A DNA stretch of 62,368 nucleotides from an uncultured Bacillota bacterium (GTDB taxonomy: Bacteria; Bacillota; Dehalobacteriia; UBA4068): NCBI GenBank assembly GCA_934271085.1, contig CAKQQU010000002.1:1-62368 (forward strand), in the 5' to 3' direction. Position 1 is the first letter of the stretch; the number at the start of each line of letters is the position of its first letter. The translations under genes were made by a program, and so were the position numbers. This document shows positions 1 through 62,368 of the stretch, piece after piece. The notes under the pieces were generated by a model. It saw only the letters and a list, made by a program, of their open reading frames with translations. It searched no databases and was not told where the DNA came from.

Positions 1-525
1 GAGCCGGGAGAGGTGAGCCGAGAGCAGGGCGAGCCGGGAGGAAGGGCGAGCCGGGATGGGCGAGCCGGGATGGGTGAGCCGGGAAGGGCGAGCCGGAGAG
101 AGTGAGCCGGAGAAAGGCGAGCCGAGAGAAGGGCGAGCCGGGAGAAGTGAGCCGGGAGAGGTGAGCCGGGAAGGGTAAGCCGGGAGGGGCAAGCCGGGAG
201 GAAGGGCGAGCCGGGAAGGGGGAGCCGAGGATGGGAGAGCCGGGAAGGGTGAGCCGGAAGAGGTAGCGAGAGGTGAGCCGGGAGAGGTGAGCCGGGAAGG
301 GCAAGCCGGGAGAGGTGAGCCGGGAAGGGCGAGCCGGGAGGGGCGAGCCGGGAGAGGTGAGCCGGGAGAGTGAGCCGGGAAGGGCGAGCCGGGAAGGCCG
401 AGCCGGGAAGGGTGAGCCGGAAGGGGTGAGCCGGGAGAGGTGAGCCGGGAGAGGTGAGCCGGAGAGAGTGAGCCGGGATGGGTGAGCCGGGAAGGGTGAG
501 CCGGGAAGGGTGAGCCGGGAAGGGC
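1..525. repeat. Degenerate tandem repeat of about 36 head-to-tail copies of a purine-rich unit GAGCCGGGARRGGY. The modal unit is 14 nt, with variants of 13, 15, 16, 17 and 24 nt. The array continues beyond the left edge of the window.
   Basis: I parsed the units one by one (1-14, 15-30, 31-47, 48-61 ... 512-525). The + strand is about 80 percent purine. Almost every unit carries TGA (…GGTGAGCC…) and the unit length is not a multiple of 3, so all three + frames are closed. No ORF in the track covers it. Confidence 0.95.
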
Positions 526-546
526 GAGCAAATAAAGAGAAAGGAT

Positions 547-567
547 GGCGCCGAAAGGCGTTTTTTT
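547..567 (+). terminator. Small intrinsic-terminator-like hairpin (GGCGCC GAAA GGCGTT) followed by a T-run, between the repeat array and terL
   Basis: Four G-C pairs plus two G-U wobble pairs, a GAAA tetraloop and 7 consecutive T (561-567). The stem is short, so this is only a candidate. Confidence 0.35.
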
Positions 568-576
568 ATTGGCAAA

Positions 577-2217
577 ATGGCTGGAAAACAAAGCGCGATA
601 AACTTCATTCAAAAGAACCTTCATATTCAGAATAAAGGGGGCAAGCTGGTACCTCTGCGCTTTAATTGGGCGCAGCAGCGGCTTTACCGCGAGATAGAAA
701 GGCAGCGGGCAGCAGGGAGGCCGGTGCGGATAATCATCCTTAAAGCCAGGCAGGTAGGTTTTTCCACAGCTGTGGCGGCGTTATTTTACGAACGCTCCGC
801 CCGGTATCCCAACATAAATTCTATGATAGTAGCCCATAAGGCGGAAGCTTCACAGAATATTTTTGCCAAGACCAAACTTTTTTACGAGACCAGCCCCGCT
901 GCAGCCCGTCCCATGAAAAAAGCCAGTAATTCCCGGGAGCTGATTTTTGAAAATCCCAGCAAGAACACGGCGGAAAAAGAGGCAAATCCCGGCCTGCGCA
1001 GCCGTATCCGCATTGAAACAGCAGGAGCCAGAGACGCGGGCCGCTCTGCTACCATTCATAATCTGCATCTTTCGGAACTGGCTTTTTGGCCCCATGCTGC
1101 AGAGACTATGCTTTCCCTGATGCAGGCTGTTCCTCATGATAAGAACAGCATGGTTATTATTGAAAGTACTGCGAGAGGGGTGGGTGGTGAATTCTATGAG
1201 CAATGGCAGCGGGCTGTGAGGGGGGAAAGCGAGTTTGTGCCGCTGTTTTTTCCCTGGTGGGAGCATGAGGAATATATGCTGCCAGACCAGGGGGAAGAAG
1301 AGGAATGGGATGATGAGGAATTGGCTCTGGCCGAGGAATACAAGCTCAGCCCCGAGCAACTGCGTTGGCGGCGCTGGTGTATATCAGCAAACTGCGGCGG
1401 TGATCCGGAACGGTTTTGTCAGGAGTATCCGGCCTGTGCCGACGAGGCATTCTGGGTAAGCGGACGGCCGGTTTTTGCCCCCAGGCCGCTGGCCGCCGCC
1501 TATGCCGCAGCAGAGCAGCCGGTTTTTTCCGGAGAGGTGGTGTGGAAACCGGGCAAGGAAGGGCAGCAGGTAGAGACAGAGGAGCGGCGGCAGGGAAATC
1601 TGCTCATATATCAGCAGCCGCGGCCGGGAGGGGATTACTGGATAGGGATAGATTCCAGTTCCGGGACAAGGGGAGGCGATTATTCGGCTATGGCGGTGGT
1701 AGACCGGGGACAGATGGAGCCGGTAGCCTATTGGCACGGGGCTATAGATCCGGATCTGCTGGGAGAAGTGGCAGTACGGCTGGCTATTTATTTTAACCGG
1801 GCCATGCTGGCTCCTGAGCTGAATAATCAAGGTATAGCGGTGATAAACGCGATACGCCGGCTGCATTATCCCCGCCTGTACCGGCGCCGCAGCGTTAACC
1901 GTACCGAGGAGCTGTTATCATGCGAATTTGGCTTTCACACCAACAGTCGTACCAAGCCGCTTATTATCAGCAATCTGGCCCGTTATATCAGGGAGAACGC
2001 CGGCAGGCTGCGGGACAGGGAGACCATTGGGGAATGTATCAGCTATATGTGGGACGACAAGGGGAGCACCAATGCGCGGGCGGGGTGTCATGACGACCGG
2101 GTGATGGCTTTGGCCATTGCCTTATGGACTGCGGGGGAAAACCGCCGCGAAGGCCCGGCATTTGTGGAGGCCAACTGGGCATCCTTATACGGAGCCAACA
2201 GCTCAACAGGGTATTAA
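577..2217 (+). CDS. terL: Phage terminase large subunit
   Basis: 546-aa ORF with an N-terminal ATPase-type segment (IIILKARQVGFSTAVAAL) and a C-terminal nuclease-type acidic motif (CHDDRVMALAIAL). It lies directly upstream of the portal gene. No Shine-Dalgarno sequence is visible before the ATG. Confidence 0.85.
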   Translation: MAGKQSAINFIQKNLHIQNKGGKLVPLRFNWAQQRLYREIERQRAAGRPVRIIILKARQVGFSTAVAALFYERSARYPNINSMIVAHKAEASQNIFAKTKLFYETSPAAARPMKKASNSRELIFENPSKNTAEKEANPGLRSRIRIETAGARDAGRSATIHNLHLSELAFWPHAAETMLSLMQAVPHDKNSMVIIESTARGVGGEFYEQWQRAVRGESEFVPLFFPWWEHEEYMLPDQGEEEEWDDEELALAEEYKLSPEQLRWRRWCISANCGGDPERFCQEYPACADEAFWVSGRPVFAPRPLAAAYAAAEQPVFSGEVVWKPGKEGQQVETEERRQGNLLIYQQPRPGGDYWIGIDSSSGTRGGDYSAMAVVDRGQMEPVAYWHGAIDPDLLGEVAVRLAIYFNRAMLAPELNNQGIAVINAIRRLHYPRLYRRRSVNRTEELLSCEFGFHTNSRTKPLIISNLARYIRENAGRLRDRETIGECISYMWDDKGSTNARAGCHDDRVMALAIALWTAGENRREGPAFVEANWASLYGANSSTGY

Positions 2218-2258
2218 GGTGCATTACAGCGGCCCAACAAAAGAAGAAAGGAGATAAT

Positions 2259-3956
2259 ATGGAGCAAGAAAGCAAAAAAGGGGCTGAACTGCTGGAAAGG
2301 ATAGAGTGGGCAGAAAAATGGCGCGACAATAATTTCGCTGAACTATGGCAGGACTGCTATCGCCGTTATCGTTCCCAGCCATTGCCCCGCAGCAGCGGCA
2401 GCAATATATTTGTGCCCCATACTTTTATGCAGTGCGAGGTCATCAAGGCCAGGATAAGGGAGACACTTTTTGCTCAGAGGCCCTATATAGCGGCTCTGCC
2501 GGTGGAAGACGGGGACCGGGAGCACGCCGCCAATATGCAGCTTTTGCTGGACTGGCAGATGAACGAGCGCATGGATCTCAGCCGGCTGATAGGCGAGGAA
2601 ATGGCCACATCATTGGTGGTTTACGGCAGTGCGGTAGCTTATACTGGCTGGCAGGTAAAAACGCGCCGCTGCACGGAAACTATCAGCGGCAGACAGCCTC
2701 TTTGTGACCGGCAGGGGCAGCCGCTGGCAGATAACAGCGGCACAGAGCTGCTGATGGACGGCGCTATAGCCAAGACAAGGGAAAAGATAGTTTATGATGA
2801 TCCGCTGGTGGCCAATGTGCCGTTGACGGATTTTTTTGTTGACCCGGAGGCTACCTCTATTGAGGACGCCCGTTTTTGCGGACACCGGGAATTTCAGACC
2901 AGGGAGGCCCTGGAAGAACTGGCAGAAGTGGGTAAATACCATATAGAGTGGCAGGAATTGAATGGCAACGGCAGCAGCGGGGATGAAATGAGCCGGGACA
3001 GCAGCAATCCCAAGGCACGCTTTGAAATCCATCACTACTGGGAGGATGGGCGACATGCGGTCATATTAGAACGCAAACTGCTTATTTGCGATGAAGAAAA
3101 CCCTTTCTGGCATGGGATGAAGCCTTATGACAAGTGCTGTTATATTTGTCTGCCAGGTGAATTTTACGGAGTGGGCATACCGGAGATACTGGCCGGACTG
3201 CAGGATGAACTTAATACGGCACGTAATCAGCGCATCGATTACAATTCCATGGCGCTGCGCCGTATGTGGAAGCTGCGCCGGGGATGCGGTCTGACCGCCC
3301 GTGATCTGGTATGGCGGCAAAACGGCGTTTTGCAGGTGGAGAATATGGATGATGTGATGGAGATAAACATTCAGGATATCCCGGCCACCGCTTTTGCCAA
3401 CGAATCTTCCATCAAGCAGGATATGCAGGACGCTACCGGCTGCCATGATATACTGATGGGCATGTCCTATGTCAAGGAGACAGCTACCACCACCATGACC
3501 AGGGATAATAATGCCTCGCTGCGTTTTAAAGCTATTATATCCGGCATAGTCCGTGATCTGCTGGTACCTATTGCCCGCAAGTGCGCATCCCTGGATCAGC
3601 AATTCCTTTCGGAAATGCGGTTGCTGCGGCTATTGGGGGAGGATGCTCAGATAAGCCCTGACCAGCGCAGTATAGGCCCATATGATCTTACCGGGGAGAT
3701 GGATATTATTTTTTGCGGCAGCGCAGTGGAACCTGCTGCCAGCAAGCAGCTTAATAAGGAGAAGACCCTGCAGGCTTATTCTCTGGCACTGGCTGATCCG
3801 GCTTATCAGCAGGATGACGCGGCCAGGCTGCGCCTATTCCGCCGGGTATTGGAGGTATTGGAGATAAAAGACGCTGATTCCCTTTTGCCCGGTGCTGCTT
3901 TGCCAGATGAAGACAAGATCAATGAGCAGGAACTGGTATCGGAGATAACAATATGA
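2259..3956 (+). CDS. Phage portal protein
   Basis: 565 aa counted from ATG 2259, which is preceded by AAAGGAG. The track ORF starts earlier, at 2124, and overlaps terL. Size, position after terL and the acidic C-terminus are typical of portals. Confidence 0.75.
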   Translation: MEQESKKGAELLERIEWAEKWRDNNFAELWQDCYRRYRSQPLPRSSGSNIFVPHTFMQCEVIKARIRETLFAQRPYIAALPVEDGDREHAANMQLLLDWQMNERMDLSRLIGEEMATSLVVYGSAVAYTGWQVKTRRCTETISGRQPLCDRQGQPLADNSGTELLMDGAIAKTREKIVYDDPLVANVPLTDFFVDPEATSIEDARFCGHREFQTREALEELAEVGKYHIEWQELNGNGSSGDEMSRDSSNPKARFEIHHYWEDGRHAVILERKLLICDEENPFWHGMKPYDKCCYICLPGEFYGVGIPEILAGLQDELNTARNQRIDYNSMALRRMWKLRRGCGLTARDLVWRQNGVLQVENMDDVMEINIQDIPATAFANESSIKQDMQDATGCHDILMGMSYVKETATTTMTRDNNASLRFKAIISGIVRDLLVPIARKCASLDQQFLSEMRLLRLLGEDAQISPDQRSIGPYDLTGEMDIIFCGSAVEPAASKQLNKEKTLQAYSLALADPAYQQDDAARLRLFRRVLEVLEIKDADSLLPGAALPDEDKINEQELVSEITI

Positions 3957-4177
3957 CAGAAGAGCAGAAGCTGGCAATAACAGAGAGTTGGCTAAGTCTG
4001 CAGGACAATGCGTTCTGGCAGCTTTTTTGGCAGGAATTGCTGCGCAAAAAGGATTATCTTTTGAACCGCCTGGCAGAGGCTGATTCCTGGGAGGAAATAT
4101 GCCGCATACAGGGCGGGCTTGCTGTATGCCGGCAGTTTATTATTTTGGCGGAAGATGCCGGGAAAGGAGCGAGATAA
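3953..4177 (+). CDS. Phage hypothetical protein (74 aa)
   Basis: ATGA start/stop overlap with the portal gene. Helical and Trp-rich. Co-oriented within the head module. Confidence 0.5.
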   Translation: MTEEQKLAITESWLSLQDNAFWQLFWQELLRKKDYLLNRLAEADSWEEICRIQGGLAVCRQFIILAEDAGKGAR

Positions 4178-4698
4178 TGAATTTCGGTCAAATGAGAGAC
4201 GCTTTTTTATCGTATACCGGTGTGGTAGATCCCCTGGATAATGCGGAACTTGCTTTCTGGTTTAATGAAGCTCAGTTGGATCTGGCCTGGGAGCTGGCTC
4301 CGGTGGAAGCATATGAACTGGCCGGGGCCCGCGGTACTGTTTTTACACCGCCTGATGACTGGCTGGTAATAATTGGCGGCAGCAAACAGTACCGTGTCAC
4401 TGGCGGCGGCGATATCGTTTTGGAAGAGGACGGGCCATGTGAGCTGTATTACCGGAAAATACCTGAAGATTTCAGCGGCCTGAACGATGAGCAGACTACA
4501 GTTCTTCATTTGGGGCTGCATTATCTGCTGCCTATTTTTGCTGCTGCCCGTTATTGGGAAAAAGAAGCTGAAGGCGACGGGGAAGAGCTGAACCAGGCAT
4601 CGCGCTGGCTCAGTTATTATTATCAGGGCAAGAGTCTGGCGAAATCCAGATTGTTTGGCATTAATGAACCTATAGACGTCTGGCAGATAAGGAGGTGA
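4177..4698 (+). CDS. Phage hypothetical protein (173 aa) in the head-completion/connector position
   Basis: ATG 4177 overlaps the preceding stop (TAATG) and follows GGAAAGGAG. The upstream part of track ORF 4099 overlaps the previous gene. Confidence 0.5.
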   Translation: MNFGQMRDAFLSYTGVVDPLDNAELAFWFNEAQLDLAWELAPVEAYELAGARGTVFTPPDDWLVIIGGSKQYRVTGGGDIVLEEDGPCELYYRKIPEDFSGLNDEQTTVLHLGLHYLLPIFAAARYWEKEAEGDGEELNQASRWLSYYYQGKSLAKSRLFGINEPIDVWQIRR

Positions 4699-4702
4699 GA
4701 TA

Positions 4703-5284
4703 ATGGGAATATTCCGGCATGACAATATAGACCTTTCCGATGAAGGTTTGGCAGCTGCCGCAGAGATAAACGAAGACGCCAAAGAGGAGTCTGCTGCCGG
4801 GAAGGGGCTTTTGGATGCTGAAACAGAAGAGCAGCAGAATACAGGTATGCCGGCAGCAGCCAGCCGGCAAGCTGATGCCAATGATAGGGAAAATGATGAA
4901 ATGCCTATAAAATGGAGACAGGCTGCGGAAAAAATAGCGGCTGCCTGGCCCCAGGCTAAGGGACAGGGAAAAGAGCTGATAGCCCGGATGATAGAAATAA
5001 GCAGACGTTACGGCGATCCCCAACTGTGGCAGAGAGAACCGGAAGGATTATTGCGGGAAGCGGCTATAGAGCTTTTTGGTATGCCTTTGACCCGGGATAA
5101 TAATTATGCGCTGGAAGCTGCGGAGGCCGCAAGAAAAGCAGCTATAAGCGATCTGGAGCGGCGGGAACAGAGCAAGCTGGGATTGGCCAAACGGAAGAGT
5201 AATATTGCGCCGCCACAAAAACCCAGCTATGAGCAGCAGATATGGAATGAGATAGCAGCTGCCAGAGACAGCAGTATTTTTTAA
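4703..5284 (+). CDS. Putative capsid scaffolding protein
   Basis: 193 aa, acidic, Ala/Glu-rich and predicted helical. It lies immediately upstream of the major capsid gene. Strong RBS (AGGAGGTGAG). Confidence 0.55.
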   Translation: MGIFRHDNIDLSDEGLAAAAEINEDAKEESAAGKGLLDAETEEQQNTGMPAAASRQADANDRENDEMPIKWRQAAEKIAAAWPQAKGQGKELIARMIEISRRYGDPQLWQREPEGLLREAAIELFGMPLTRDNNYALEAAEAARKAAISDLERREQSKLGLAKRKSNIAPPQKPSYEQQIWNEIAAARDSSIF

Positions 5285-5370
5285 TACTAAGGGCGGCCGG
5301 CGGCTTGAAGGACATGTTTTACATTAATGAAGTAGAGTAAAAAATAAGTAAAAATATCAGGAGGAAGACT

Positions 5371-6528
5371 ATGACTAACATCAATGAAACCCGCAACACC
5401 AATAACATTAATCAGAATCGCAGAGTAGTGGATATGGCCAAGCAGATAGCGCTGCTGGACCCCAATGAAGGGCCGTTGCTGAGCTTTTTGAAGCTGGCAA
5501 AGAAAAATACCCGCTGTGTATATAATCCCAAATTTGAGTGGCTGGAAGATGATCTGCTGGAGACCTGGGGCACTGTCAGCGAAGGGGCAACCGCAACGGC
5601 TACTTCCATATCGGTAAACAACGGCGATCTTTTCCGGGTAGGGGATATCCTTATGGTACCATCAACCGGAGAATCCATGCTGATCACCGCTGTTTCCGGC
5701 AACTCGCTTACTGTCGGCCGCGGCTATGGTTCTACAGAAGCCGCAGTTATCAAAGCTAATGATGATGTTTTGAATCTGGGCCCCGCTATGGAAGAAAACA
5801 GCTGCGGCAGGGCTGTAAAATCCACAAATGAGATAAATGGTTATAATTACACCCAGATATTCCGTACACCCATAGCTCTTTCCGGTACGGAGAATGCCAG
5901 CGCTCTTTATGGCGGAAGAGACCGGGCTTATCAGCGGCGAAAAGCATCTTTGGAGCATAAGAGGGATATTGCCCGCGCTTTCTATTTCGGGCAGCGCAAA
6001 GAAGATCTGAGCGGTAATGCTCCCAGACGTACTATGGGAGGCCTGATAGAGTTTTTGGAGCGGGCCAATGCATCCCAGAGCTTCAGCAGCACCGATAATC
6101 CTTTGACCTACAAAAACTTTGACTCCTCGGTAGCTGCAGCCGCTTTCCGTTACGGCAGCAAGGAAAAACTGCTGATAGCCGGACCGTATCTGGCTTCTGC
6201 CATCAATAGCTGGAGCGAATCCCGTTTGGTCAGTGAGGTATCTGAAGAAGCCACCTTCGGTATTCGCGTTAAAAACCTGATAACTACATACGGCGATCTG
6301 AAAGTAATTTATGATCCTCTGCTGGACGGCCCGTATAAAGGATATGGCTTTATAGTAGACACTGAGAATATCCGCTACGCTTATCTGGAAGGCCGCGATA
6401 CCAAGCTGCTTACGGATATACAAGCTAATGATGTTGATGGCGTAATGGATGAGTACCTGACTGAATGTTCCCTTGAGCTGCGTCTGCCCAAAACACATAT
6501 GCTGATCAAGGGTTGTTATATTTCTTAA
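5371..6528 (+). CDS. Major capsid protein (SU10/DUF5309-like family)
   Basis: 385 aa. The N-terminal pattern IALLDPNEGPLLSFLKLAKK...NPKFEWLEDDL recalls the DUF5309/SU10-type capsid family. RBS is CAGGAGGAAG. A strong terminator hairpin lies directly downstream. Confidence 0.8.
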   Translation: MTNINETRNTNNINQNRRVVDMAKQIALLDPNEGPLLSFLKLAKKNTRCVYNPKFEWLEDDLLETWGTVSEGATATATSISVNNGDLFRVGDILMVPSTGESMLITAVSGNSLTVGRGYGSTEAAVIKANDDVLNLGPAMEENSCGRAVKSTNEINGYNYTQIFRTPIALSGTENASALYGGRDRAYQRRKASLEHKRDIARAFYFGQRKEDLSGNAPRRTMGGLIEFLERANASQSFSSTDNPLTYKNFDSSVAAAAFRYGSKEKLLIAGPYLASAINSWSESRLVSEVSEEATFGIRVKNLITTYGDLKVIYDPLLDGPYKGYGFIVDTENIRYAYLEGRDTKLLTDIQANDVDGVMDEYLTECSLELRLPKTHMLIKGCYIS

Positions 6529-6541
6529 GGCGCGGCATGAG

Positions 6542-6578
6542 TTTTTCAGGGACGGCTTTTATTGCCGTCCCTGAAAAA
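6542..6578 (+). terminator. Intrinsic terminator/attenuator after the major capsid gene
   Basis: TTTTTCAGGGACGGC-TTTTATT-GCCGTCCCTGAAAAA, a perfect stem of 10 G/C-rich pairs extended by A/T flanks. Confidence 0.7.
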
Positions 6579-6596
6579 AGTATATATGGAGGTGCT

Positions 6597-8207
6597 ATGG
6601 GCAGGTTTTTACGTATATATCGCAATTTCAGCGGCGGCCTTTCGGAAGCTGCCAATGACAATATGGGGGACGACCAGCTGACTGAAGCCAGAAATATCGT
6701 TCCCGGAGACGGCTTTGGCATTGCCAAAGCCTGCGGCGTAGTACCCGCTTATCCCCGCATACCCGTTACCCAGGCAAACTCTAACAGGGTGGTGCGTCTT
6801 CTGGAATTTAAGCCTGTGGAAGGCGATGCCCAGCTGCTGGCTTTTGTCAGCGTACCTACTGTTTATGAAGATATTTATCGCTATCGTGCGGACAGTAACG
6901 ACTGGCTGCGTATAGCTGAGAACGAACGGGCGGTCAAAGACTGGTTTATTTTCGGGGGCAAACTGTATTATCTGAACGGCAGCAGTCTTCGTTGTTATGA
7001 CGGGACTGATTTCAGCGATGTGTCCATCAATCCCCAGGGAAGCACTGCTACTGCCGCGGAAAAGTCTGTTTGGAGCAAGGTGAAGAAAGCGATTGCCGTG
7101 GAGCAAAGAGGACATCGCTGGTTTTATGCTACTAAGGACAATGAGGTGATCTTCAGTGAGGTAGGCGATCCTGCTTCCATTGACCCCACCAGTATCATTA
7201 ATGTAAATACCAAAAACGGTGACAGCATTACTGCCCTGCATGAATTCAACGACGGATTGCTGATATTTAAAAAGCACAGCATCCATTATTTGCAGGGATG
7301 GGATATGGCAGGCGGCAGTGATGTGCGGCTGCAGCAGTTGAATGTCAGCAGCGGAACTGTTTTTCCCCGTTCTGTCTGCACTGTGGATAACGGGGTTATC
7401 TATTTGGGTTCCAACGGACTTTATCGCCTGACAGTTCCTGACAGCAGTACCATTGTAGCGGCTAAAAACATTTCCGAGGGCCGCATCTCCAAAAGGCTTT
7501 ATGCAAAGGGGCAGATCCTGGAGGCTGTGGCCGCGGTTTGGGAAAACACCTATTATCTGTCAGTACGTAAGCAGATCACCGATGAAAGCGGTCAGCTAAC
7601 AGGGACGGCTGATTATGAATACCGTTATCTGGTGGCTAAAAACAGTTTTTTTGGCGAATTTACCATGCCCACTTTTTCTTATGCCATTGACTTGGGAGGG
7701 CAGAGCGCTTTATTTATAGGCAGTAATAACGGATATGTGCTGCGTTATGACAGGAACAGCTATCATTATACTGATACCGATACCGGAGAGGCATTGCCAA
7801 TAGATGCCCGGGCCCGCAGTAAATGCTATGATGTGGCAGGCTCCATGGCTCAGGAAGTACGTCTTAACCGGGTAGAGATAGCTGCCCGTCAGTTTATGGA
7901 GGAAAGCTCGGATTTTTCCGTACAGTTGAAAGCTGATTACGGGGATTATTCCTGGGATGCTTCTTTGAAATGGGCGTCTGATACCGATGACGGACTGATT
8001 TACGGTGAAGGATTGTTGGGTATCGGGCTTTGGGGATGGCAGGATACTGTAACCAAGGAATTGCTGGTGCGGCGGCGCTGTACCAGACTGCAGTTTATTA
8101 TCAGCGACGAAAGCGATCAGCCCCTGCTGATCTACGGACTGGCTCTGCTTTATAGGAAGAAGAGACTGAAAGGCAGCAGGAGAGGGGTGGTGATGAGCAA
8201 TGAGTAA
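6597..8207 (+). CDS. Phage structural protein (putative tail/adaptor, beta-rich repeats)
   Basis: 536 aa counted from ATG 6597 (RBS GGAGGTG). Recurrent motifs of the type YYLNGSSLRCYDG and IYLGSNGLYRL suggest a propeller-like fold. It lies after the capsid gene. Confidence 0.5.
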   Translation: MGRFLRIYRNFSGGLSEAANDNMGDDQLTEARNIVPGDGFGIAKACGVVPAYPRIPVTQANSNRVVRLLEFKPVEGDAQLLAFVSVPTVYEDIYRYRADSNDWLRIAENERAVKDWFIFGGKLYYLNGSSLRCYDGTDFSDVSINPQGSTATAAEKSVWSKVKKAIAVEQRGHRWFYATKDNEVIFSEVGDPASIDPTSIINVNTKNGDSITALHEFNDGLLIFKKHSIHYLQGWDMAGGSDVRLQQLNVSSGTVFPRSVCTVDNGVIYLGSNGLYRLTVPDSSTIVAAKNISEGRISKRLYAKGQILEAVAAVWENTYYLSVRKQITDESGQLTGTADYEYRYLVAKNSFFGEFTMPTFSYAIDLGGQSALFIGSNNGYVLRYDRNSYHYTDTDTGEALPIDARARSKCYDVAGSMAQEVRLNRVEIAARQFMEESSDFSVQLKADYGDYSWDASLKWASDTDDGLIYGEGLLGIGLWGWQDTVTKELLVRRRCTRLQFIISDESDQPLLIYGLALLYRKKRLKGSRRGVVMSNE

Positions 8208-8814
8208 AGTAGTTCTGCCCTATTTGTTAAGGGAAGGACAGGTGGCATATGCTGCCAGAGTGATGGCAAACTTTAACGCGCTTTTGGACAGGATCAACAG
8301 CGTAACTTTGCCGGGAATGGCCGAGACTGATTTGGAAGACGCTGTGCAGCAGCTGAAATTATTGCTGGACAAGAACGCTGCTACCTTGCAGCAGACCCTG
8401 GCAGGATTCTTTTATGACGGCCAAAACCAGCAGTTGGTGATCTCCAGAAAAGACGGCGGCAAATTTACGGTAAATGTGGCTGATTTCTGTGAGAATTATC
8501 AGGGAGCGGACAGCAGTACCATCAGCGTTGACGTAGACGGGGACAGTAAGATAAGCGCTTCCATAAAGGAAGGGGCTGTAAACTATGGTATGCTGGACTC
8601 TGGGGTACAGGATATGATCAGCGGCAAGATCACCGCCAACAGCAGCGGTAATGCGGATCAGGTGCTTTTCAGCGACGGGGAAAGCTTTCAGAGCAAGCTG
8701 GACAGCGGCCAGCTGCGGGGATCTGACGCGGTGGTAGTACCCGCAGACAATATATACTATTTCCGCCTAGGCAGTGACGGGCATCTTTATATGGGTGTCC
8801 CGGATGACGCATAG
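8200..8814 (+). CDS. Phage tail-associated protein (204 aa)
   Basis: The start overlaps the stop of the preceding gene. The N-terminal ANFNALLDRIN-type segment resembles tail-fibre N-termini. It lies upstream of the fibre/spike gene. Confidence 0.45.
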   Translation: MSKVVLPYLLREGQVAYAARVMANFNALLDRINSVTLPGMAETDLEDAVQQLKLLLDKNAATLQQTLAGFFYDGQNQQLVISRKDGGKFTVNVADFCENYQGADSSTISVDVDGDSKISASIKEGAVNYGMLDSGVQDMISGKITANSSGNADQVLFSDGESFQSKLDSGQLRGSDAVVVPADNIYYFRLGSDGHLYMGVPDDA

Positions 8815-8852
8815 GAGACATCTGCTTAAGAATAAAGTTAAACAAGGAGGAA

Positions 8853-10121
8853 ATGCTGATGGCCAAAGAAATCGACCTGGGATATATAAGGGGAGAGGCA
8901 GGGCCCTCTGGTCCCGCAGGTCCTAAAGGAGATACGGGACCCGCAGGACCAATGCCCCATATAACCGTAGGTAAAACCACTACTCTTGCCGCCGGTCAAC
9001 CCGCTGAGGTGAGCATCAGGGAAGGAAGCAGCGAAGCAGCGCCGATACTGGATTTTGCTATTCCTGCCGGAGGCAGCGGCAACGGCGATATGAGTTCATC
9101 TGTATATGACAGCAATAACAGACATCAGGATATTTTCGGCTATGTGGACGAACGTACCGGCCTGCGTGATGCTACTATTGTGGTGGCTGCCGCGGATTCC
9201 CAGGATAAAAGCAGAGCTGATTTTGTCTGTGAAGGCGAGAGCGATCAAGTGACGCTGACGGAAGCCATAAATTCCCTGCCAGCTCAGGGCGGGCAGATCC
9301 TGCTGCTGGAAGGCACCTATATTCTGGATAGTTACGGGCTAGCCAACACTAACAACCGCTATAGAATTGTAAATATTTCGGTAGACCATGTTACCTTAAG
9401 AGGACAGGGAAGCAACACTGTTTTGAAATTGGCGGACAATGTCAGCGAGACAGACTTTAGTTATGAGTTGGTGTGGGTAACAGGTAAAGAATGCGCTATT
9501 CAGTCTTTGGCGGTAGACGGCAATAAAACCAATAATGCTGTCGGCACGGTGGAAGGCATACGTTTGCAGCATAGTGCTGATAATTGTCTGGTATGTGATT
9601 GCCATGTTTATAACTGTAACGGCTTTGGGATGGTAAGTTTTGCTACAGGGGCTGTAATAAGCCGCAATCATATGACTGATTGCGTATCCGGCTGTCGGGT
9701 TGCTTCCGGCCAGACTATGGTGGTTGATAATTTTATCAAAGGCATGTCTGCCAATGGCATCACTGTAGAAGGCGGAACACAGCATATCATAAATAATAAC
9801 AGCATACGCAACAGCGGCAGCAAAGGCATTGAATTTGACTCCTGCCGGCTCTGCCAATGCTGCAGCAATGTTTTGATAGATCAACCCATAGGTATATATG
9901 CATATCAGCTTAATGATTCAACTATTATCGCTAATATAATCAAAAGACAGGAGCTTTCAAACATTTATGCTGACAGTGAACATTCAATTTTCCTTGAGGA
10001 GTGCAGCACTAATATGGTTATACTTAACCATATCACAGGTAAAGCTTTGACAACCAACGGTTACTGTAATATTACAAAATATTTTGCTTCTTCGGAAACA
10101 GAATGGAATCTATTTACTTAG
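8853..10121 (+). CDS. Tail fibre/spike with a collagen-like Gly-X-Y stretch and a right-handed beta-helix (pectate-lyase-like) domain
   Basis: GEAGPSGPAGPKGDTGPAGP near the N-terminus. Repeated N-x-x-I/V-x-N/G beta-helix rungs (ISRNHMTDC, VDNFIKGMSANGITVEGG, INNNSIRNSGSKGIEF). ATG 8859 is equally possible given the spacing from the AAGGAGG RBS. Confidence 0.7.
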   Translation: MLMAKEIDLGYIRGEAGPSGPAGPKGDTGPAGPMPHITVGKTTTLAAGQPAEVSIREGSSEAAPILDFAIPAGGSGNGDMSSSVYDSNNRHQDIFGYVDERTGLRDATIVVAAADSQDKSRADFVCEGESDQVTLTEAINSLPAQGGQILLLEGTYILDSYGLANTNNRYRIVNISVDHVTLRGQGSNTVLKLADNVSETDFSYELVWVTGKECAIQSLAVDGNKTNNAVGTVEGIRLQHSADNCLVCDCHVYNCNGFGMVSFATGAVISRNHMTDCVSGCRVASGQTMVVDNFIKGMSANGITVEGGTQHIINNNSIRNSGSKGIEFDSCRLCQCCSNVLIDQPIGIYAYQLNDSTIIANIIKRQELSNIYADSEHSIFLEECSTNMVILNHITGKALTTNGYCNITKYFASSETEWNLFT

Positions 10122-10138
10122 GAAAGCGGGGGGAGAAT

Positions 10139-10339
10139 ATGTCAGGATTATTGATGGACGGAAGCATGATCATATATTTGTTGGGACTGGCTGCTACCTG
10201 GGGCGCTTTAATGTGGCGGATCAGTGCTTTGGAAAAGAAGATGGACAAGCATAACTGTCTGATGGAAAGGATGGCTGTTGCGGAAAACAATATCAAGGCT
10301 GCCGAGCACAGACTGGATCATATTGAGGGGGCGGAATAG
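10139..10339 (+). CDS. Small membrane/coiled-coil lysis-associated protein (XhlA-like)
   Basis: 66 aa counted from ATG 10139 (RBS GGGGGGAG). One N-terminal transmembrane segment (IIYLLGLAATWGALMW) followed by a coiled coil (ISALEKKMDKH...AEHRLDHIE). It lies directly before the holin/endolysin. Confidence 0.5.
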   Translation: MSGLLMDGSMIIYLLGLAATWGALMWRISALEKKMDKHNCLMERMAVAENNIKAAEHRLDHIEGAE

Positions 10340-10358
10340 CTGAAAGGAGAAAAGCAGG

Positions 10359-10526
10359 ATGCGGGAAGCATTTGTCAGATTGCTTAAGGTCAAATCGCTC
10401 ATTACTTTAATGGTAACGGCTGCGCTGCTTTATGGGTTTATCAGAGGACAGATAAATTCTGAACAGTTTATGCAGATCGGGGTAATGGTTTTTACTTTTT
10501 ATTTTGCCAAACAGCCTGGGGAATAG
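10359..10526 (+). CDS. Putative holin (55 aa, two transmembrane segments), absent from the ORF track because it is under 60 aa
   Basis: My own translation gives MREAFVRLLKVKSLITLMVTAALLYGFIRGQINSEQFMQIGVMVFTFYFAKQPGE. The RBS AAAGGAG lies 9 nt upstream. The stop is TAG at 10524-10526. It lies immediately upstream of the endolysin. Confidence 0.55.
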   Translation: MREAFVRLLKVKSLITLMVTAALLYGFIRGQINSEQFMQIGVMVFTFYFAKQPGE

Positions 10527-10536
10527 GAGATTTTTT

Positions 10537-11193
10537 ATGGATCAGAGAAAAAAGATGCTGGAGACGGCGGCAGCCCAAGTGGGCTATAAAGAAGGCAGGA
10601 ACAATGACAGCAAATTTGGGCTTTGGTACGGTATGAATAATCAGCCCTGGTGTATGATGTTTATCAGTTGGTGCGCGGAAAAGGCCGGCATTGGCCGGGA
10701 TATCATTCCCAAAATGGCTTATGTACCGTATGCTGCTGATTTTTTCCGCAAAAGAGGGCTTTGGCATAATAAAGAAAATTATATGCCTGTACCGGGAGAT
10801 CTTGTCTTTTACGGCGAGAATGACCACATCGGCATAGCGGAGAAGGTAGAAAAGGGCAGGTTGGAGACTATTGAGGGTAATACTTCCTGTAAAGGAAACA
10901 GCAGCAACGGTGACGGCGTATACCGCCGCAGCCGCTGGTTGACAGACAGCTGGATCAAGGGATTTGCCCACCCGGAATATAAGGAGGATAAAGTGAACAT
11001 AATCAAGATCACCATAACTGATATAGACAGGGGAATAGATCTGGAAACCGATGGATTTTACTGTGACGGCACTAATTATATTCGCCTGCGTGATGTGGAG
11101 AAGCTGGCTCCGGTTGCCATAGGCTATGATGAAAAGCGCCGGATGCCTACGGTAAGGATAAATTATCCCCAGGCGGCAGAAGATCTCGGATAG
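10537..11193 (+). CDS. Endolysin with an N-terminal CHAP (Cys-His amidase/peptidase) domain and a C-terminal putative wall-binding domain
   Basis: Catalytic-type motifs NQPWCMMFISW, DHIGIAEKV and IEGNTS. The C-terminal 70 aa (TNYIRLRDVEKLAPVAIGYDEKRR) resemble copper-amine-oxidase-N-like wall-binding modules. ATG 10537 follows TAGGAGA. Confidence 0.8.
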   Translation: MDQRKKMLETAAAQVGYKEGRNNDSKFGLWYGMNNQPWCMMFISWCAEKAGIGRDIIPKMAYVPYAADFFRKRGLWHNKENYMPVPGDLVFYGENDHIGIAEKVEKGRLETIEGNTSCKGNSSNGDGVYRRSRWLTDSWIKGFAHPEYKEDKVNIIKITITDIDRGIDLETDGFYCDGTNYIRLRDVEKLAPVAIGYDEKRRMPTVRINYPQAAEDLG

Positions 11194-11207
11194 AGGAAAG
11201 GAGGAAT

Positions 11208-11242
11208 GCCGGTGCGGCAAAAATGATATGAGCCGCACCGGC
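11208..11242 (+). terminator. Stem-loop after the endolysin (11-bp perfect stem GCCGGTGCGGC/GCCGCACCGGC, 13-nt loop)
   Basis: The perfect inverted repeat was read directly. No T-run follows, so it may be an RNA-processing or stability element rather than a terminator. Confidence 0.45.
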
Positions 11243-11252
11243 TGTAAATATA

Positions 11253-11972
11253 ATGGGAACATATAGAGTAAAGGCAGATGGCAACGCTCCGGCAGGGCTT
11301 TCGGTGGGGGATTTTGTGGTCACCGGAGGCGGAGTATATCTTATAACAGGTTTTAAAAGCAATGGCAGCTATAAAAGCCAGCTTATTGATTCATCCACCA
11401 CCACTTACAATTATAAGGGCAGCTACGACACGCCGCCTTCGGATATGGGCGGCATTGTTTCAGAAAATGATCGCAGCGGCAGAGGCGGTTCCGATAATAA
11501 AGACAGCGGCTCAGAAGATAGCGGTATAAAGAACAGTATTACCTGGGATAATCTGTTGGATCAACTGCAAAACCAGTTGGATTCTGCAGGCGATGACAGT
11601 TATAAACCAGTAAGGATGCCTGATATAGATGCTATGAGCTTTGAAGAGGCAATGGCATTGGCAGAAGACGTATTGAAACCCCAGTATAGTAATGCTTATC
11701 GGGATATAGCCCAGCAGGCGGATCAGAAGCTGGAAAAAGCAGGGCTATATGATACAGTATACGGACAGGCTTTGGCGGCAGACGCGCAAAGGGATATTGC
11801 CGCTGATCTGAGCGCGGCTGTGGTAGGCCTGGCCCTGGAGTTGTCAGACGCAAGTCAGGAGCAGGCGCAGAAGGTACTGGAAATGGCTGTTAAGGAAAGA
11901 CAGTTCGGAGCGAATTATGACGCTGATCAGAAGAAAACTGCCCTGAAATATCTGATGCAGCTTATTTCCTGA
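11253..11972 (+). CDS. Hypothetical protein (239 aa) in the post-lysis cargo position
   Basis: Complete ORF with no motif I recognise. Gly/Ser/Asp-rich low-complexity centre (SENDRSGRGGSDNKDSGSEDSG). Helical Ala/Gln-rich C-terminus. Confidence 0.5.
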   Translation: MGTYRVKADGNAPAGLSVGDFVVTGGGVYLITGFKSNGSYKSQLIDSSTTTYNYKGSYDTPPSDMGGIVSENDRSGRGGSDNKDSGSEDSGIKNSITWDNLLDQLQNQLDSAGDDSYKPVRMPDIDAMSFEEAMALAEDVLKPQYSNAYRDIAQQADQKLEKAGLYDTVYGQALAADAQRDIAADLSAAVVGLALELSDASQEQAQKVLEMAVKERQFGANYDADQKKTALKYLMQLIS

Positions 11973-12121
11973 TGATCTAGACGGCGGGGTCAGCCGGGGA
12001 AGCGAATGGCCTCGCCGGGGCAGCCCCTTATTTATATAAGCAGTTGTCGGTTATTGCAACATTTTTTACTACATGGTAAACTAAAAAGGCAAGACTTGCA
12101 TAAGACGAGGGGTTTGACAGC

Positions 12122-13312
12122 ATGAGAATACTCAGCATAAGCGCACAAAAACCCAATTCTACCGGCAGCGGGGTTTATCTGACCGAAACAGTACGGGGAT
12201 TTGCTTCCTTAGGCCATAACCAGGCAGTGCTGGCGGGTATATATGAGCAGGATCAGGTGAGCCTTCCGGATGGAGTAGCTTTTTATCCGGTATATTTTGA
12301 TACGCCGCAACTGCCCTTTCATATAGCGGGTATGTCTGATGAAATGCCTTATCCCAGCACTGTTTACAGCCGGATGACCCCTGAAATGACCGGGCAGTTC
12401 GCAGAATCTTTCAGCAAGGCCCTTATGACAGCAGTGGCGGAATTTAAACCGGATGTTCTGCTGTGCCATCATCTTTATCTGCTGACGGCAATTGTCCGAA
12501 AGCTTTTTCCTGATCTGTCTGTATGGGGCATATGCCACGGAACGGACCTGCGGCAAATGGCAAAAAATCCTTTGTGGAGAGATGAGATCAGGGAGCAGAT
12601 ATGTGGCTTGGACAAGGTATTCTGCCTGCATGAAGAACAAAGATCTCAGGCGATCGCTTGCTATAATCTGGATCCATGCCGGGTAACTGTTGTCGGCAAC
12701 GGCTATAACGAGCAGATATTTTATGACCGGGGCCAGCGAATGCCTCATGCTGAGCGGCGGCTGGTATTTGCCGGCAAAATATCGGAGAAAAAAGGGGTGT
12801 TCAGCCTGCTGCGGGCTTTGTCTCTGCTGGGTTGGGATAAGGATCAGTTCTCCCTGCTTATGGCCGGGGGATGGAGCAACGAATCCCAGAAACAGTATGT
12901 GGACAAATTGATAGAAAAGAGCGGCTACAATGTTTCTCTTTCGGGGAATCTGCGGCAGGAACAGCTGGCCGAGGAATTTAACCGGGGCGATATTTTTGTG
13001 CTGCCCAGTTTCTATGACGGATTGCCATTGGTATTGGCAGAATCCATGGCCTGCGGTATGCAGGTGGTTTGCAGCGATCTGCCGGGTATCCGCCCCTGGA
13101 TGGACGCTCATGTTCCTCATCATACTATACGTTTTGTAAAACCGCCGCGGATGCATGACGCGGATGTGCCGGATCCGGCTACCCTGCCTGGATTTGAGCA
13201 GGAGCTGGCTGAGGCTATACGGGAGGCGGCTGAGCATCCTTATCTGCAGCGGCCGGATCTCTCCTTAGTGAGCTGGCCGGGAGTATGCCGGCGGATATTG
13301 TCAGCAAGATAA
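12122..13312 (+). CDS. Glycosyltransferase family 4 (GT-B fold)
   Basis: 396 aa. C-terminal EX7E-type region (FVLPSFYDGLPLVLAESMACG) and an N-terminal MRILSIS...TGSGVY segment. Confidence 0.8.
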   Translation: MRILSISAQKPNSTGSGVYLTETVRGFASLGHNQAVLAGIYEQDQVSLPDGVAFYPVYFDTPQLPFHIAGMSDEMPYPSTVYSRMTPEMTGQFAESFSKALMTAVAEFKPDVLLCHHLYLLTAIVRKLFPDLSVWGICHGTDLRQMAKNPLWRDEIREQICGLDKVFCLHEEQRSQAIACYNLDPCRVTVVGNGYNEQIFYDRGQRMPHAERRLVFAGKISEKKGVFSLLRALSLLGWDKDQFSLLMAGGWSNESQKQYVDKLIEKSGYNVSLSGNLRQEQLAEEFNRGDIFVLPSFYDGLPLVLAESMACGMQVVCSDLPGIRPWMDAHVPHHTIRFVKPPRMHDADVPDPATLPGFEQELAEAIREAAEHPYLQRPDLSLVSWPGVCRRILSAR

Positions 13313-61170: not shown

Positions 61171-61259
61171 GGAGTGGTATCGAAGTGGTCATAACGAGCT
61201 GCACTGGAAATGCAGTGTACCTCCGGGTACCGCGAGTTCGAATCTCGCCCACTCCGCCA
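61171..61259 (+). tRNA. tRNA-Ser (anticodon GGA), class II with a long variable arm and an encoded CCA
   Basis: Hand-folded. Acceptor stem GGAGTGG/CCACTCC. Anticodon stem CTGCA/TGCAG with loop CTGGAAA. Variable-arm stem GTACC/GGTAC. T-arm GCGAG-TTCGAAT-CTCGC. Discriminator G followed by CCA. Confidence 0.93.
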
Positions 61260-61507: not shown

Positions 61508-62368
61508 TATGAAGACTGCATGCCGTATTGTTTTTACTGCGCTGTTTTGTCTGTCGATTTTATTTATGATGCCCTGTCCCGCTCTGGCCAGTCCATCGCT
61601 GATCCAGTATCTTACCATTACTGACAGCAGCGGCAGGATGTTGCCCGGATATTCTTTTGATACTAATTGCGATACCTATTATCTTTATTTTGATCATCCA
61701 CAGACCTTGAACTTTTGGGCCCGCGCTTATCCGGATGCCTATATGATCGACTCTGACCATAGCAAGGTAAAGGAGATCGGTTTTCAGCAGCAGATAAGCA
61801 AAGAGCATACTGTGGTATATATTTCGGCAGTGGCCGAGGAATCCCAGACGGTAGTCTTTCATCTGTGCCTTGAGGAGCTTTCTGACGAGGATGAAAGTTC
61901 GCAGCAGAACAGCGCTATCGGCAGCGATATCAGCGGAGAACAGCCGGATGATACCCTGGACAAGTATGCTGGAGATTTGGCCGATATTAGCTGCCGCGAA
62001 AGCTTTTTCGAAGAAGAATATGCCGAGGACAGCTATGGTTACGATGATTATTATGCCGGGGACAGCAACTGTGCGGCTGCCCAGGATCCTTTATATATAG
62101 TACTGCAAATCGGCAGTTCTACCGCTCTCGTTGATGAGCATGAATATTTGCTTGATGCAGCCCCTTATCTGGTATCGCCGGGTTATACTTATGTACCGCT
62201 GCGCTTTGTGGCGGAAGCCATGGGCGCTCAGGTTAGTTGGGATGGCAGCCAGCAGCGGGTGGATATTTCCCTGAATGAACGGAGCTTCTCCCTGTTTATC
62301 GGGCAGACTATCGCCGGAACTTCGGCAAGCGCCAGGATAACCAATAGCCGTACTTTTGTCCCCCTGCG
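61508..62368 (+). CDS. Secreted protein, 3-prime-truncated by the window end: signal peptide, cadherin-like beta-sandwich-type N-domain, acidic linker, copper-amine-oxidase-N-like wall-associated domain
   Basis: My own translation from ATG 61508 stays open to the window end (287 codons), so it is absent from the ORF track. Signal peptide ...PCPALA-SP. Acidic linker (EELSDEDESS...YGYDDYY). C-terminal YTYVPLRFVAEAMGAQVSWDG is typical of the Cu_amine_oxidN1-type domain. Confidence 0.7.

Follow-up and report, generated by a model that had tools for sequence, protein, structure and literature searches.

What is the purine-rich tandem repeat that stands directly before the large-terminase gene terL at the left edge of contig CAKQQU010000002.1, and does it matter to the genes behind it? 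The stretch that we analyzed (62,368 nucleotides from an uncultured Bacillota bacterium; "the window" below) opens inside this repeat, which is followed by an 11.4-kb cassette of phage-type genes resembling a gene transfer agent (GTA). An earlier note on the same DNA had offered three explanations of the array: a packaging or genome-terminus repeat, a transcribed repeat RNA that ends at a nearby hairpin, and a recombination-prone satellite that also broke the assembly. The last of these is strongly supported. We conclude that the array is a real, non-coding, hypervariable minisatellite in the leader of the terL operon; in all likelihood it is neither a pac site nor a surrogate for the small-terminase gene terS, nor does it encode a protein.

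Tandem Repeats Finder returned a single array at window positions 1-529, with a period of 14, 37.3 copies, 79% matches and the consensus GAGCCGGGAAGGGT. The window's first base already lies inside it, and the array extends beyond the left edge, just as the note had described. When up to one mismatch was allowed, GAGCCGGGARRGG was found 28 times on the + strand within 1-524 and once more elsewhere in the 62-kb window; the expectation was 0.36 matches per shuffle, and in 100 shuffles this count was never attained. Most units are 14 nt long (27 of them), the remainder being one of 13, two each of 15, 16 and 17, and one of 24 nt. Purines make up 78% of the + strand of the array (G 55%, C 17%, T 5%). 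An AGCCG core is unchanged in 45 of 45 units of 14 nt.

Nine further contigs carrying the array were found via the exact TerL protein and its 90% cluster: L001, L023, L024, L025, L031, L036, L037, L038 and L039. Several metagenome samples are represented among them, as are MEGAHIT-style (k141_), SPAdes-style (NODE_) and Logan contigs. Downstream of the array, terL is 97-100% identical in all ten contigs, as are the flanking genes, and synonymous divergence within this lineage is about 0.05; the array is present in every one of the ten. Its unit order and number differ. Scored by identical sequence counted leftwards from the linker that follows the array, the contigs fall into at least six haplotypes (window/L001/L031; L036; L023/L024/L025; L037; L038; L039). 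The window and L001 differ by one 14-nt unit and are otherwise identical across 12.2 kb; the arrays of L023 and L024 have 128 nt in common, and L036 has a higher-order periodicity of about 141 nt in its array. Nine of the ten contigs, the window among them, break off inside the array. The array thus accounts for the assembly breaks of this organism at the locus.

The sole exception is L031, a scaffold of 210 kb that differs from the window by 6 mismatches in 11.9 kb; it spans the whole array and allowed us to read the left flank. There the stop codon and terminator of an S-layer-type (SLH) gene are followed by an A/T-rich tract, AAAAAGTGGCAGTTTTT, 16 nt, TATAAT, AGCATCATCGGAAGAGGTGGCGAGAGGT, the array, the linker, the hairpin and the terL ATG. 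The L031 array comprises about 14-15 units after the leader start ATCGGAAGAGGTGGCGAGAGGT, and its last 183 nt are identical to the window. A box, GTGGCAGTTTTT (GTGGCA[G/C]NTTT), starts exactly 28 nt before the -10 hexamer TATAAT in eight of nine homologous loci, and this spacing is constant across TerL identities of 58-100% and differing genomic contexts. Because the box is unlike a sigma-A -35 element, an activator or an alternative sigma factor is likely to be involved. We also considered a sigma-54 promoter at the TGGCA box and rejected it, since the GG-N10-GC spacing occurs in only two of the nine loci and TATAAT lies at the fixed 28-nt offset. In L031 the array begins about 4-20 nt past the predicted transcription start. 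This promoter-to-array junction, together with the hairpin downstream, places the array within the 5' leader. At terL, therefore, a promoter, an untranslated leader and a G+C stem with a U-run precede the first gene.

The hairpin, with 6 bp and a GAAA loop, is the cleanest intrinsic-terminator-like site within 1-12,500. Only 9 nt separate the end of its T7 run from the terL ATG at 577, which leaves no room for a promoter, so that terL expression must read through the hairpin. The terL ATG lacks a Shine-Dalgarno (SD) sequence: pairing with the 16S rRNA tail is predicted to yield no more than -2.0 kcal/mol there, compared with -10 to -18.7 kcal/mol for eight other cassette genes. The tail was assumed to be of the Bacillota type, an assumption that the strong SD sequences of the cassette genes support. 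Folding and duplex energies thus bear out the hairpin and the SD-less terL that had been read by eye. In L037 and L038 the hairpin carries G548A, which turns a G.U pair into A-U, and a GCAA in place of the GAAA loop; stem and GNRA loop are both kept. A hairpin with a T-run is found 9-30 nt before terL in six of nine homologous loci (L031 and five of the eight array-less relatives), and the hairpins of these six loci are mutually unrelated in sequence. A terminator in this position suggests that the operon may be controlled by read-through. Small open reading frames (ORFs) of 41 and 18 aa (510-635 and 545-601, +) cross the hairpin and the terL ATG; as a translation-coupled antiterminator either was rejected, neither being conserved in relatives. 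In L023-type strains a 1-nt difference brings the GTG of the last unit in frame with terL, and gene callers give TerL lengths of 568-621 aa.

Where did the unit come from? The array was not found in any relative with 58-79% identical TerL, so that its expected presence beside terL homologues holds for the ten near-identical contigs and fails beyond them. These relatives retain the promoter, and most have a hairpin and T-run of their own ahead of terL. Their leaders are 58-252 nt long and mostly purine-rich, with a moderately conserved leader-start consensus ATCG-AAGAGGTG-G-GGAGA; the motif AAGAGGTG-GAGCAGAG is common to the leader starts of L028, L030, L002 and L031. An array unit read across the junction, GAGAGGTGAGCC, equals this leader-start motif. 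Inside the odd 24-nt unit lies a copy of the leader's first 20 nt, which indicates a higher-order duplication that took in the leader start. Because the junction matches the motif, and because of this internal copy, we take the array to be a tandem amplification of the native leader-start motif. Judged from the sequence comparison, it arose in one lineage from a purine-rich SD-like motif, AGAGGTGAGC, that is single-copy in the leader starts of relatives. L031, L028 and L030 have it in strong form at the leader start, L002 in moderate form, and L026, L027, L029 and L034 in weak form.

In L029 (100-300; TerL 77% identical), a hairpin-rich segment of about 50 nt is directly duplicated, with copies about 140 nt apart; by this comparison, leaders of the terL family appear to evolve by duplication even when they lack the 14-nt array. 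A scan of JGI metagenomes for two consecutive units gave 17 matches of 1-5 units on unrelated, mostly high-GC contigs, which represent chance or independent G-rich repeats. Two to five copies of a near-identical 14-mer, GAGCCGGGARGGGC, occur in L003 (1000-1033, at the contig end) and in L011 (5988-6050, after a tRNA gene); these are probably independent G-rich micro-expansions. IMG/VR contained no match for the unit dimer or for the promoter box, and a scan of a genome collection recovered one related species genome only.

We then asked which physical properties distinguish the array. The G-quadruplex pattern that had been pointed out does exist (7 non-overlapping motifs, including 475-496 and 503-524). 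It is not a defining property: the count does not exceed that of composition-matched shuffles (mean 4.1, max 8) and follows from the 55% G. Pairing with the assumed 16S tail is a different matter. Unit junctions reach -8.6 to -16.2 kcal/mol, and the array has 43 sites per kb at -10 kcal/mol or lower, vs 2.9 per kb in the rest of the window. SD-like 5' stabilizers without a start codon are established in Bacillota, where they bind the 30S subunit and protect RNA from RNase J1 (STAB-SD, PMC4113751). By sequence, the array presents the same feature, an SD-like element complementary to 16S rRNA near the predicted 5' end of the transcript. It is also the window's most RNA:DNA-hybrid-favorable 200-nt stretch, with a GC skew of 0.53 and a hybrid-minus-duplex energy of -0.35 kcal/mol per step vs -0.06 for background, about 6 standard deviations from the mean (nearest-neighbor values of Sugimoto 1995 and SantaLucia 1998). 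Promoter-proximal G-rich homopurine tracts block transcription through R-loops (PMC5499740, PMC3561996); one such non-template tract, 9 bp from the promoter, cut transcription more than 10-fold in vitro (PMC5499740). The predicted RNA fold is a diffuse ensemble in which the minimum free energy structure has a frequency of 0.0001, the array centroid is almost unpaired, and only the terminator hairpin is stable. An Rfam search over the spanning L031 locus gave no family over the leader, the only hits being sub-threshold matches to the SLH-gene terminator.

Our favored reading, held with about even confidence, is that of a leader satellite with a probable effect in cis on expression of the terL operon; the array may also be neutral. 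If it does act, the array would set how much transcript reaches terL. With 0.2 to >0.5 kb of G-rich non-template DNA placed a few bases past the start, RNA:DNA hybrids would be favored and R-loop stalling could follow; dozens of sites complementary to the 16S tail might bind 30S subunits and protect the mRNA in a STAB-SD-like manner; and all of these sites would precede a terminator that needs to be read through if the lethal particle and lysis operon is to be expressed. Slippage or unequal recombination would shift the copy number and so could produce differences in output from strain to strain and possibly from cell to cell. A stronger version, which we think rather unlikely, is that the locus is a contingency locus, in which the variable SD-like, R-loop-prone stack would set the fraction of cells firing the GTA-like cassette and may offset the SD that terL has lost.

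Several points weigh against an action in cis. It is a prediction from the DNA that the box promoter is used, that transcripts terminate at 567 and that copy number has any effect, and the short allele of L031 (15 units) could be an assembly collapse. The sign of the array's net effect is not predictable, as published non-template G-rich tracts lower (PMC5499740) or raise (PMC7341879) transcription. A strong leader-start SD-like motif is clear in only 3-4 of 8 relatives, and the absence of the array at TerL identities up to 79% makes it dispensable for cassette function. Unit-to-unit variation is purine-for-purine, and the count on which this rests (78 transitions vs 5 transversions) is inflated because array units are copies of one another. 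The array, being dispensable, could be a tolerated by-product of slippage.

The best-surviving alternative takes up this last point and holds that the array is a harmless product of slippage or unequal recombination acting on a purine-rich leader motif, with no selected function. Its lineage-specific occurrence, with relatives at 58-79% TerL identity lacking it, is what a neutral satellite would give, and the same can be said of the very fast change in unit order and number and of the lack of a defined RNA structure, of an Rfam family and of G-quadruplexes above composition. On the other hand, the array has been kept in ten of ten contigs while the cassette behind it stays under purifying selection, its AGCCG core is invariant and its variation is purine-for-purine, and 0.2 to >0.5 kb of inserted G-rich sequence that separates a promoter from its first gene would hardly be free of effect (PMC5499740). 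We regard neutrality as quite possible, though we lean away from it.

The leader RNA, once released at the hairpin, might instead act in trans by titrating a protein (CsrA-type or a dedicated regulator) or the 30S subunit. The anatomy of a transcribed repeat RNA did stand up, in that L031 shows promoter, array and hairpin in this order and the array is thus bracketed by a promoter and a terminator; in addition, each unit can fold a 3-bp GCC/GGY stem whose loop displays GGGAAG or GGGAGA, and SD-like sites are dense. The sponge proposed along with it found no such backing: no CsrB/Rsm-type or other Rfam family matches, the 3-bp stems lie in a diffuse ensemble with no stable fold, relatives do without the array, and it varies too much in copy number and sequence to serve as a dosage-tuned sponge. 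We consider a role in trans improbable.

Whether the array could be a packaging site depends on what the cassette is. Its genes for head, tail and lysis occupy 577-11972, and host genes resume at 12122 (glycosyltransferase, iron ABC transporter, PdxS, GntR-aminotransferase and others). No integrase, repressor, replication gene or terS was recognized in or near the cassette. Homologous 11-kb cassettes are present in other uncultured Bacillota or Clostridia (L002, L026, L027, L028, L030, L034), always with terL first, right behind the promoter, and with host genes on both sides; in L028, L030 and L031 the cassette is preceded by AMP-binding, Nitro_FeMo-Co, NTP_transf_3 and SLH genes. A small-terminase gene had been expected at the place of the array; no relative carries terS there, so nothing is missing before terL. 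Identity between genomes is 54-69% for the host flank proteins and 60-75% for TerL, portal, capsid and g7, values comparable enough that the cassette has diverged in step with the chromosome. The window differs from L023, which also bears the array, by 107 synonymous and 27 non-synonymous changes (ratio of non-synonymous to synonymous polymorphism, pN/pS, 0.074), and pN/pS against L026 is 0.24. By these ratios the cassette is under purifying selection and not decaying. The closest sequenced phages are distant: TerL relatives in IMG/VR are 35-38% identical only, and the best INPHARED matches are 38% (TerL) and 33% (capsid) identical, so there is no close cultured or sequenced phage relative. 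Fixed host synteny, purifying selection and the lack of a close sequenced phage together make up the signature of a domesticated GTA-like element. Judged from its genes, the cassette resembles a chromosomally fixed, vertically inherited, GTA-like element of podovirus type, as opposed to a linear phage genome or a complete prophage.

A pac or terminus repeat region bound by terminase would suit an array that adjoins terL in a cassette with no recognized terS, and short motifs are repeated in some pac sites, such as the hexamer repeats of phage P1. But the array sits in a leader, in an 11.4-kb chromosomal cassette between host genes and not at the end of a phage genome, and relatives with the same cassette have no array. 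GTA-type packaging, moreover, is typically not sequence-specific (PMC12946183). This explanation, the first of the three originally offered, is very improbable.

The array as a minus-strand gene for a proline-rich repeat protein (PGSPFPAHPSRLTL) is hardly credible. All three minus frames are indeed open along its full length, and in L031 minus ORFs of 146 and 105 aa cover it. These frames are open because of composition: almost no purine follows T, and the pyrimidine-rich strand forms no stops. Units of 13-17 and 24 nt, and copy changes of 14 nt between near-identical strains, shift the frame, while the ORFs start antisense inside terL, cross the terminator and the promoter, and have no SD. 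Hence the consistent minus-strand frame that was to count against a non-coding array was not found, and Pfam had no match for these ORFs. On the + strand, TGA stops close all three frames as the earlier note had it, though TGA occurs only in T-ending units, about 60% of the array, rather than in almost every unit. Coding on the + strand with TGA recoded was rejected as well, because a 14-nt period with 13-17-nt variants holds no frame and the cassette genes read in the standard code. We observed that T-ending units form overlapping GTGA start/stop junctions, and thereby a chain of 5-codon mini-ORFs (MSREG, then stop; window 1-529, +), each with the SD-like motif of the previous unit about 10 nt ahead of it. 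Finally, an assembly or chimera artefact can be set aside: repeats of this kind are beyond what short-read assemblers can resolve, nine of ten contigs break off within the array and the 141-nt period of L036 could be an assembly loop, but an array of one type occupies one and the same position in all ten contigs, which represent several samples and MEGAHIT-style, SPAdes-style and Logan assembly, with identity over 183 nt between the window and L031 and over 128 nt between L023 and L024.

Coordinates of the array, its surroundings and the cassette genes (window positions), with leader starts of three homologous loci
Feature	Position	Strand	Description
14-nt purine-rich tandem array	1..529	+	at least 37 units, GAGCCGGGAAGGGT; repeat analysis; terL-operon 5' leader by comparison with L031 (99.9% identical)
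Internal copy of the leader's first 20 nt	255..274	+	19/20 nt, CGGAAGAGGT[A/G]GCGAGAGGT; inside the odd 24-nt unit
A-rich linker	530..546	+	AGCAAATAAAGAGAAAGGAT; between array and hairpin; able to pair with the U-tract
Intrinsic-terminator-like hairpin	547..567	+	GGCGCC-GAAA-GGCGTT plus T7 run; stem-loop 547-562, T7 561-567
terL	577..2217	+	546 aa; first cassette gene, without SD
SU10-type portal protein	2259..3956	+	
SU10-adaptor-like protein	4177..4698	+	weak match
SU10-type major capsid protein	5371..6528	+	
Remaining cassette genes	6513..11972	+	including 204-aa protein and 239-aa protein
Internal-virion or tail-like protein	within 6513..11972	+	PF11134 on record
Beta-helix tail-spike-like protein	8853-10121	+	
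CHAP lysin	~10504-11193	+	
Leader start, L028			CAAGAGGTGAGCAGAGGGG
Leader start, L030			AAAGGAGGTGGGAGCAGAG
Leader start, L031			GGAAGAGGTGGCGAGAGGTGAGCC

Several further observations concern the cassette and its relatives. The portal ORF is in two pieces in L023 (1982-3678) and L030 (11790-13549), through a frameshift or a sequencing error, and is whole in the window, L001, L024, L031 and L036. In L034 (about 10001-10780; also L035, and proteins P0005-P0010 and P0018) the N terminus of TerL is extended by in-frame 99-nt (33-aa) repeats rich in K/R/E/A, and the TerL of other relatives has shorter basic N-terminal extensions; the extension may be a built-in DNA-binding arm in a cassette that lacks TerS. 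Orphan terL genes, 60% identical and with the same promoter box, lie between recG and a peptidase M23 gene in L032 (3610-5311) and L033; no portal or capsid gene is nearby, as in a split or decayed cassette. The far end of the window is ordinary host sequence, with a tRNA-Ser(GGA) gene followed by a terminator-like hairpin (61171-61259) and a secreted protein with C-terminal copper-amine-oxidase N-terminal-like repeats that runs off the right edge (61510-62368).

How does the locus compare with known systems? Intergenic variable number tandem repeats (VNTRs), 5' stabilizers, R-loop-prone tracts and terminator-gated late operons are each already known. To our knowledge, and within our searches, their combination is undescribed: a leader-start motif amplified at least 15-37 times, a GTA-like operon, and a terL that has lost its SD. 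Should it prove to influence expression, the array would give gut Bacillota a simple, easily mutated means of adjusting a gene-transfer or particle operon that is costly and kills the cell, and it would show that leaders with many SD-like or R-loop-prone copies occur in nature. It also cautions against taking this locus for a prophage end or a pac site. The terS-less cassette, which is conserved and has a promoter box at rigid spacing and a pre-terL terminator, may outweigh the array in value.

Like bacterial VNTRs or minisatellites (the intergenic "contingency" repeats), the array consists of short head-to-tail units, is polymorphic between strains and breaks short-read assemblies; its length (at least 37 units, >0.5 kb) and its richness in G are unusual among them. 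Since it lies downstream of the transcription start and not between promoter elements or in a coding frame, it cannot switch expression on and off in the classic way, by frame or by spacer length. With the STAB-SD of Bacillus thuringiensis cry3A (PMC4113751) it shares an SD-like, 16S-complementary sequence that lies close to the 5' end of a long Bacillota leader and does not start the downstream gene; here, however, the motif is amplified 15 to >37 times, the leader-start motif is strong in some relatives only, and the likeness is one of sequence. Its G-rich purine non-template strand, about 4-20 nt from the predicted start, matches the R-loop tracts (PMC5499740, PMC3561996), although the published systems used T7 RNA polymerase in vitro. 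The CsrB/RsmZ sponges have in common with it many GGA motifs able to sit in small loops and a promoter/terminator bracket, but the array has no Rfam match, 3-bp stems and a context that is not ANGGA-like, is linked in cis to its operon and is hypervariable. T7-type terminal repeats sit at the ends of linear phage genomes, whereas the array has host genes on both sides (SLH to the left, glycosyltransferase and transporter to the right).

For the layout of promoter, leader and terminator-like hairpin right before the first packaging gene, seen in six of nine loci, the nearest parallels are lambda PR'-tR' with Q and GafZ in the Caulobacter GTA, CcGTA (PMC11150451). At the terL locus no antiterminator gene or binding site was identified; the terminator studied in CcGTA follows the first gene, and the lambda leader has no repeat array. 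The closest known kind for the cassette, as opposed to the array, is FpGTA of Faecalibacterium, likened here by description: a podovirus-like, GTA-like operon of similar size that has been shown to be active (PMC12946183). FpGTA I has a candidate TerS and keeps its lysis genes in a second locus, whereas the window cassette has no recognizable TerS and holds its CHAP lysin inside. Both are operons of about 10-11 kb with TerL, portal, scaffold or capsid and short-tail genes, in the chromosome of gut Bacillota and without replication or integration genes. The cassette would thus be a second candidate family of podovirus-like, GTA-like elements, one with a testable regulatory handle.

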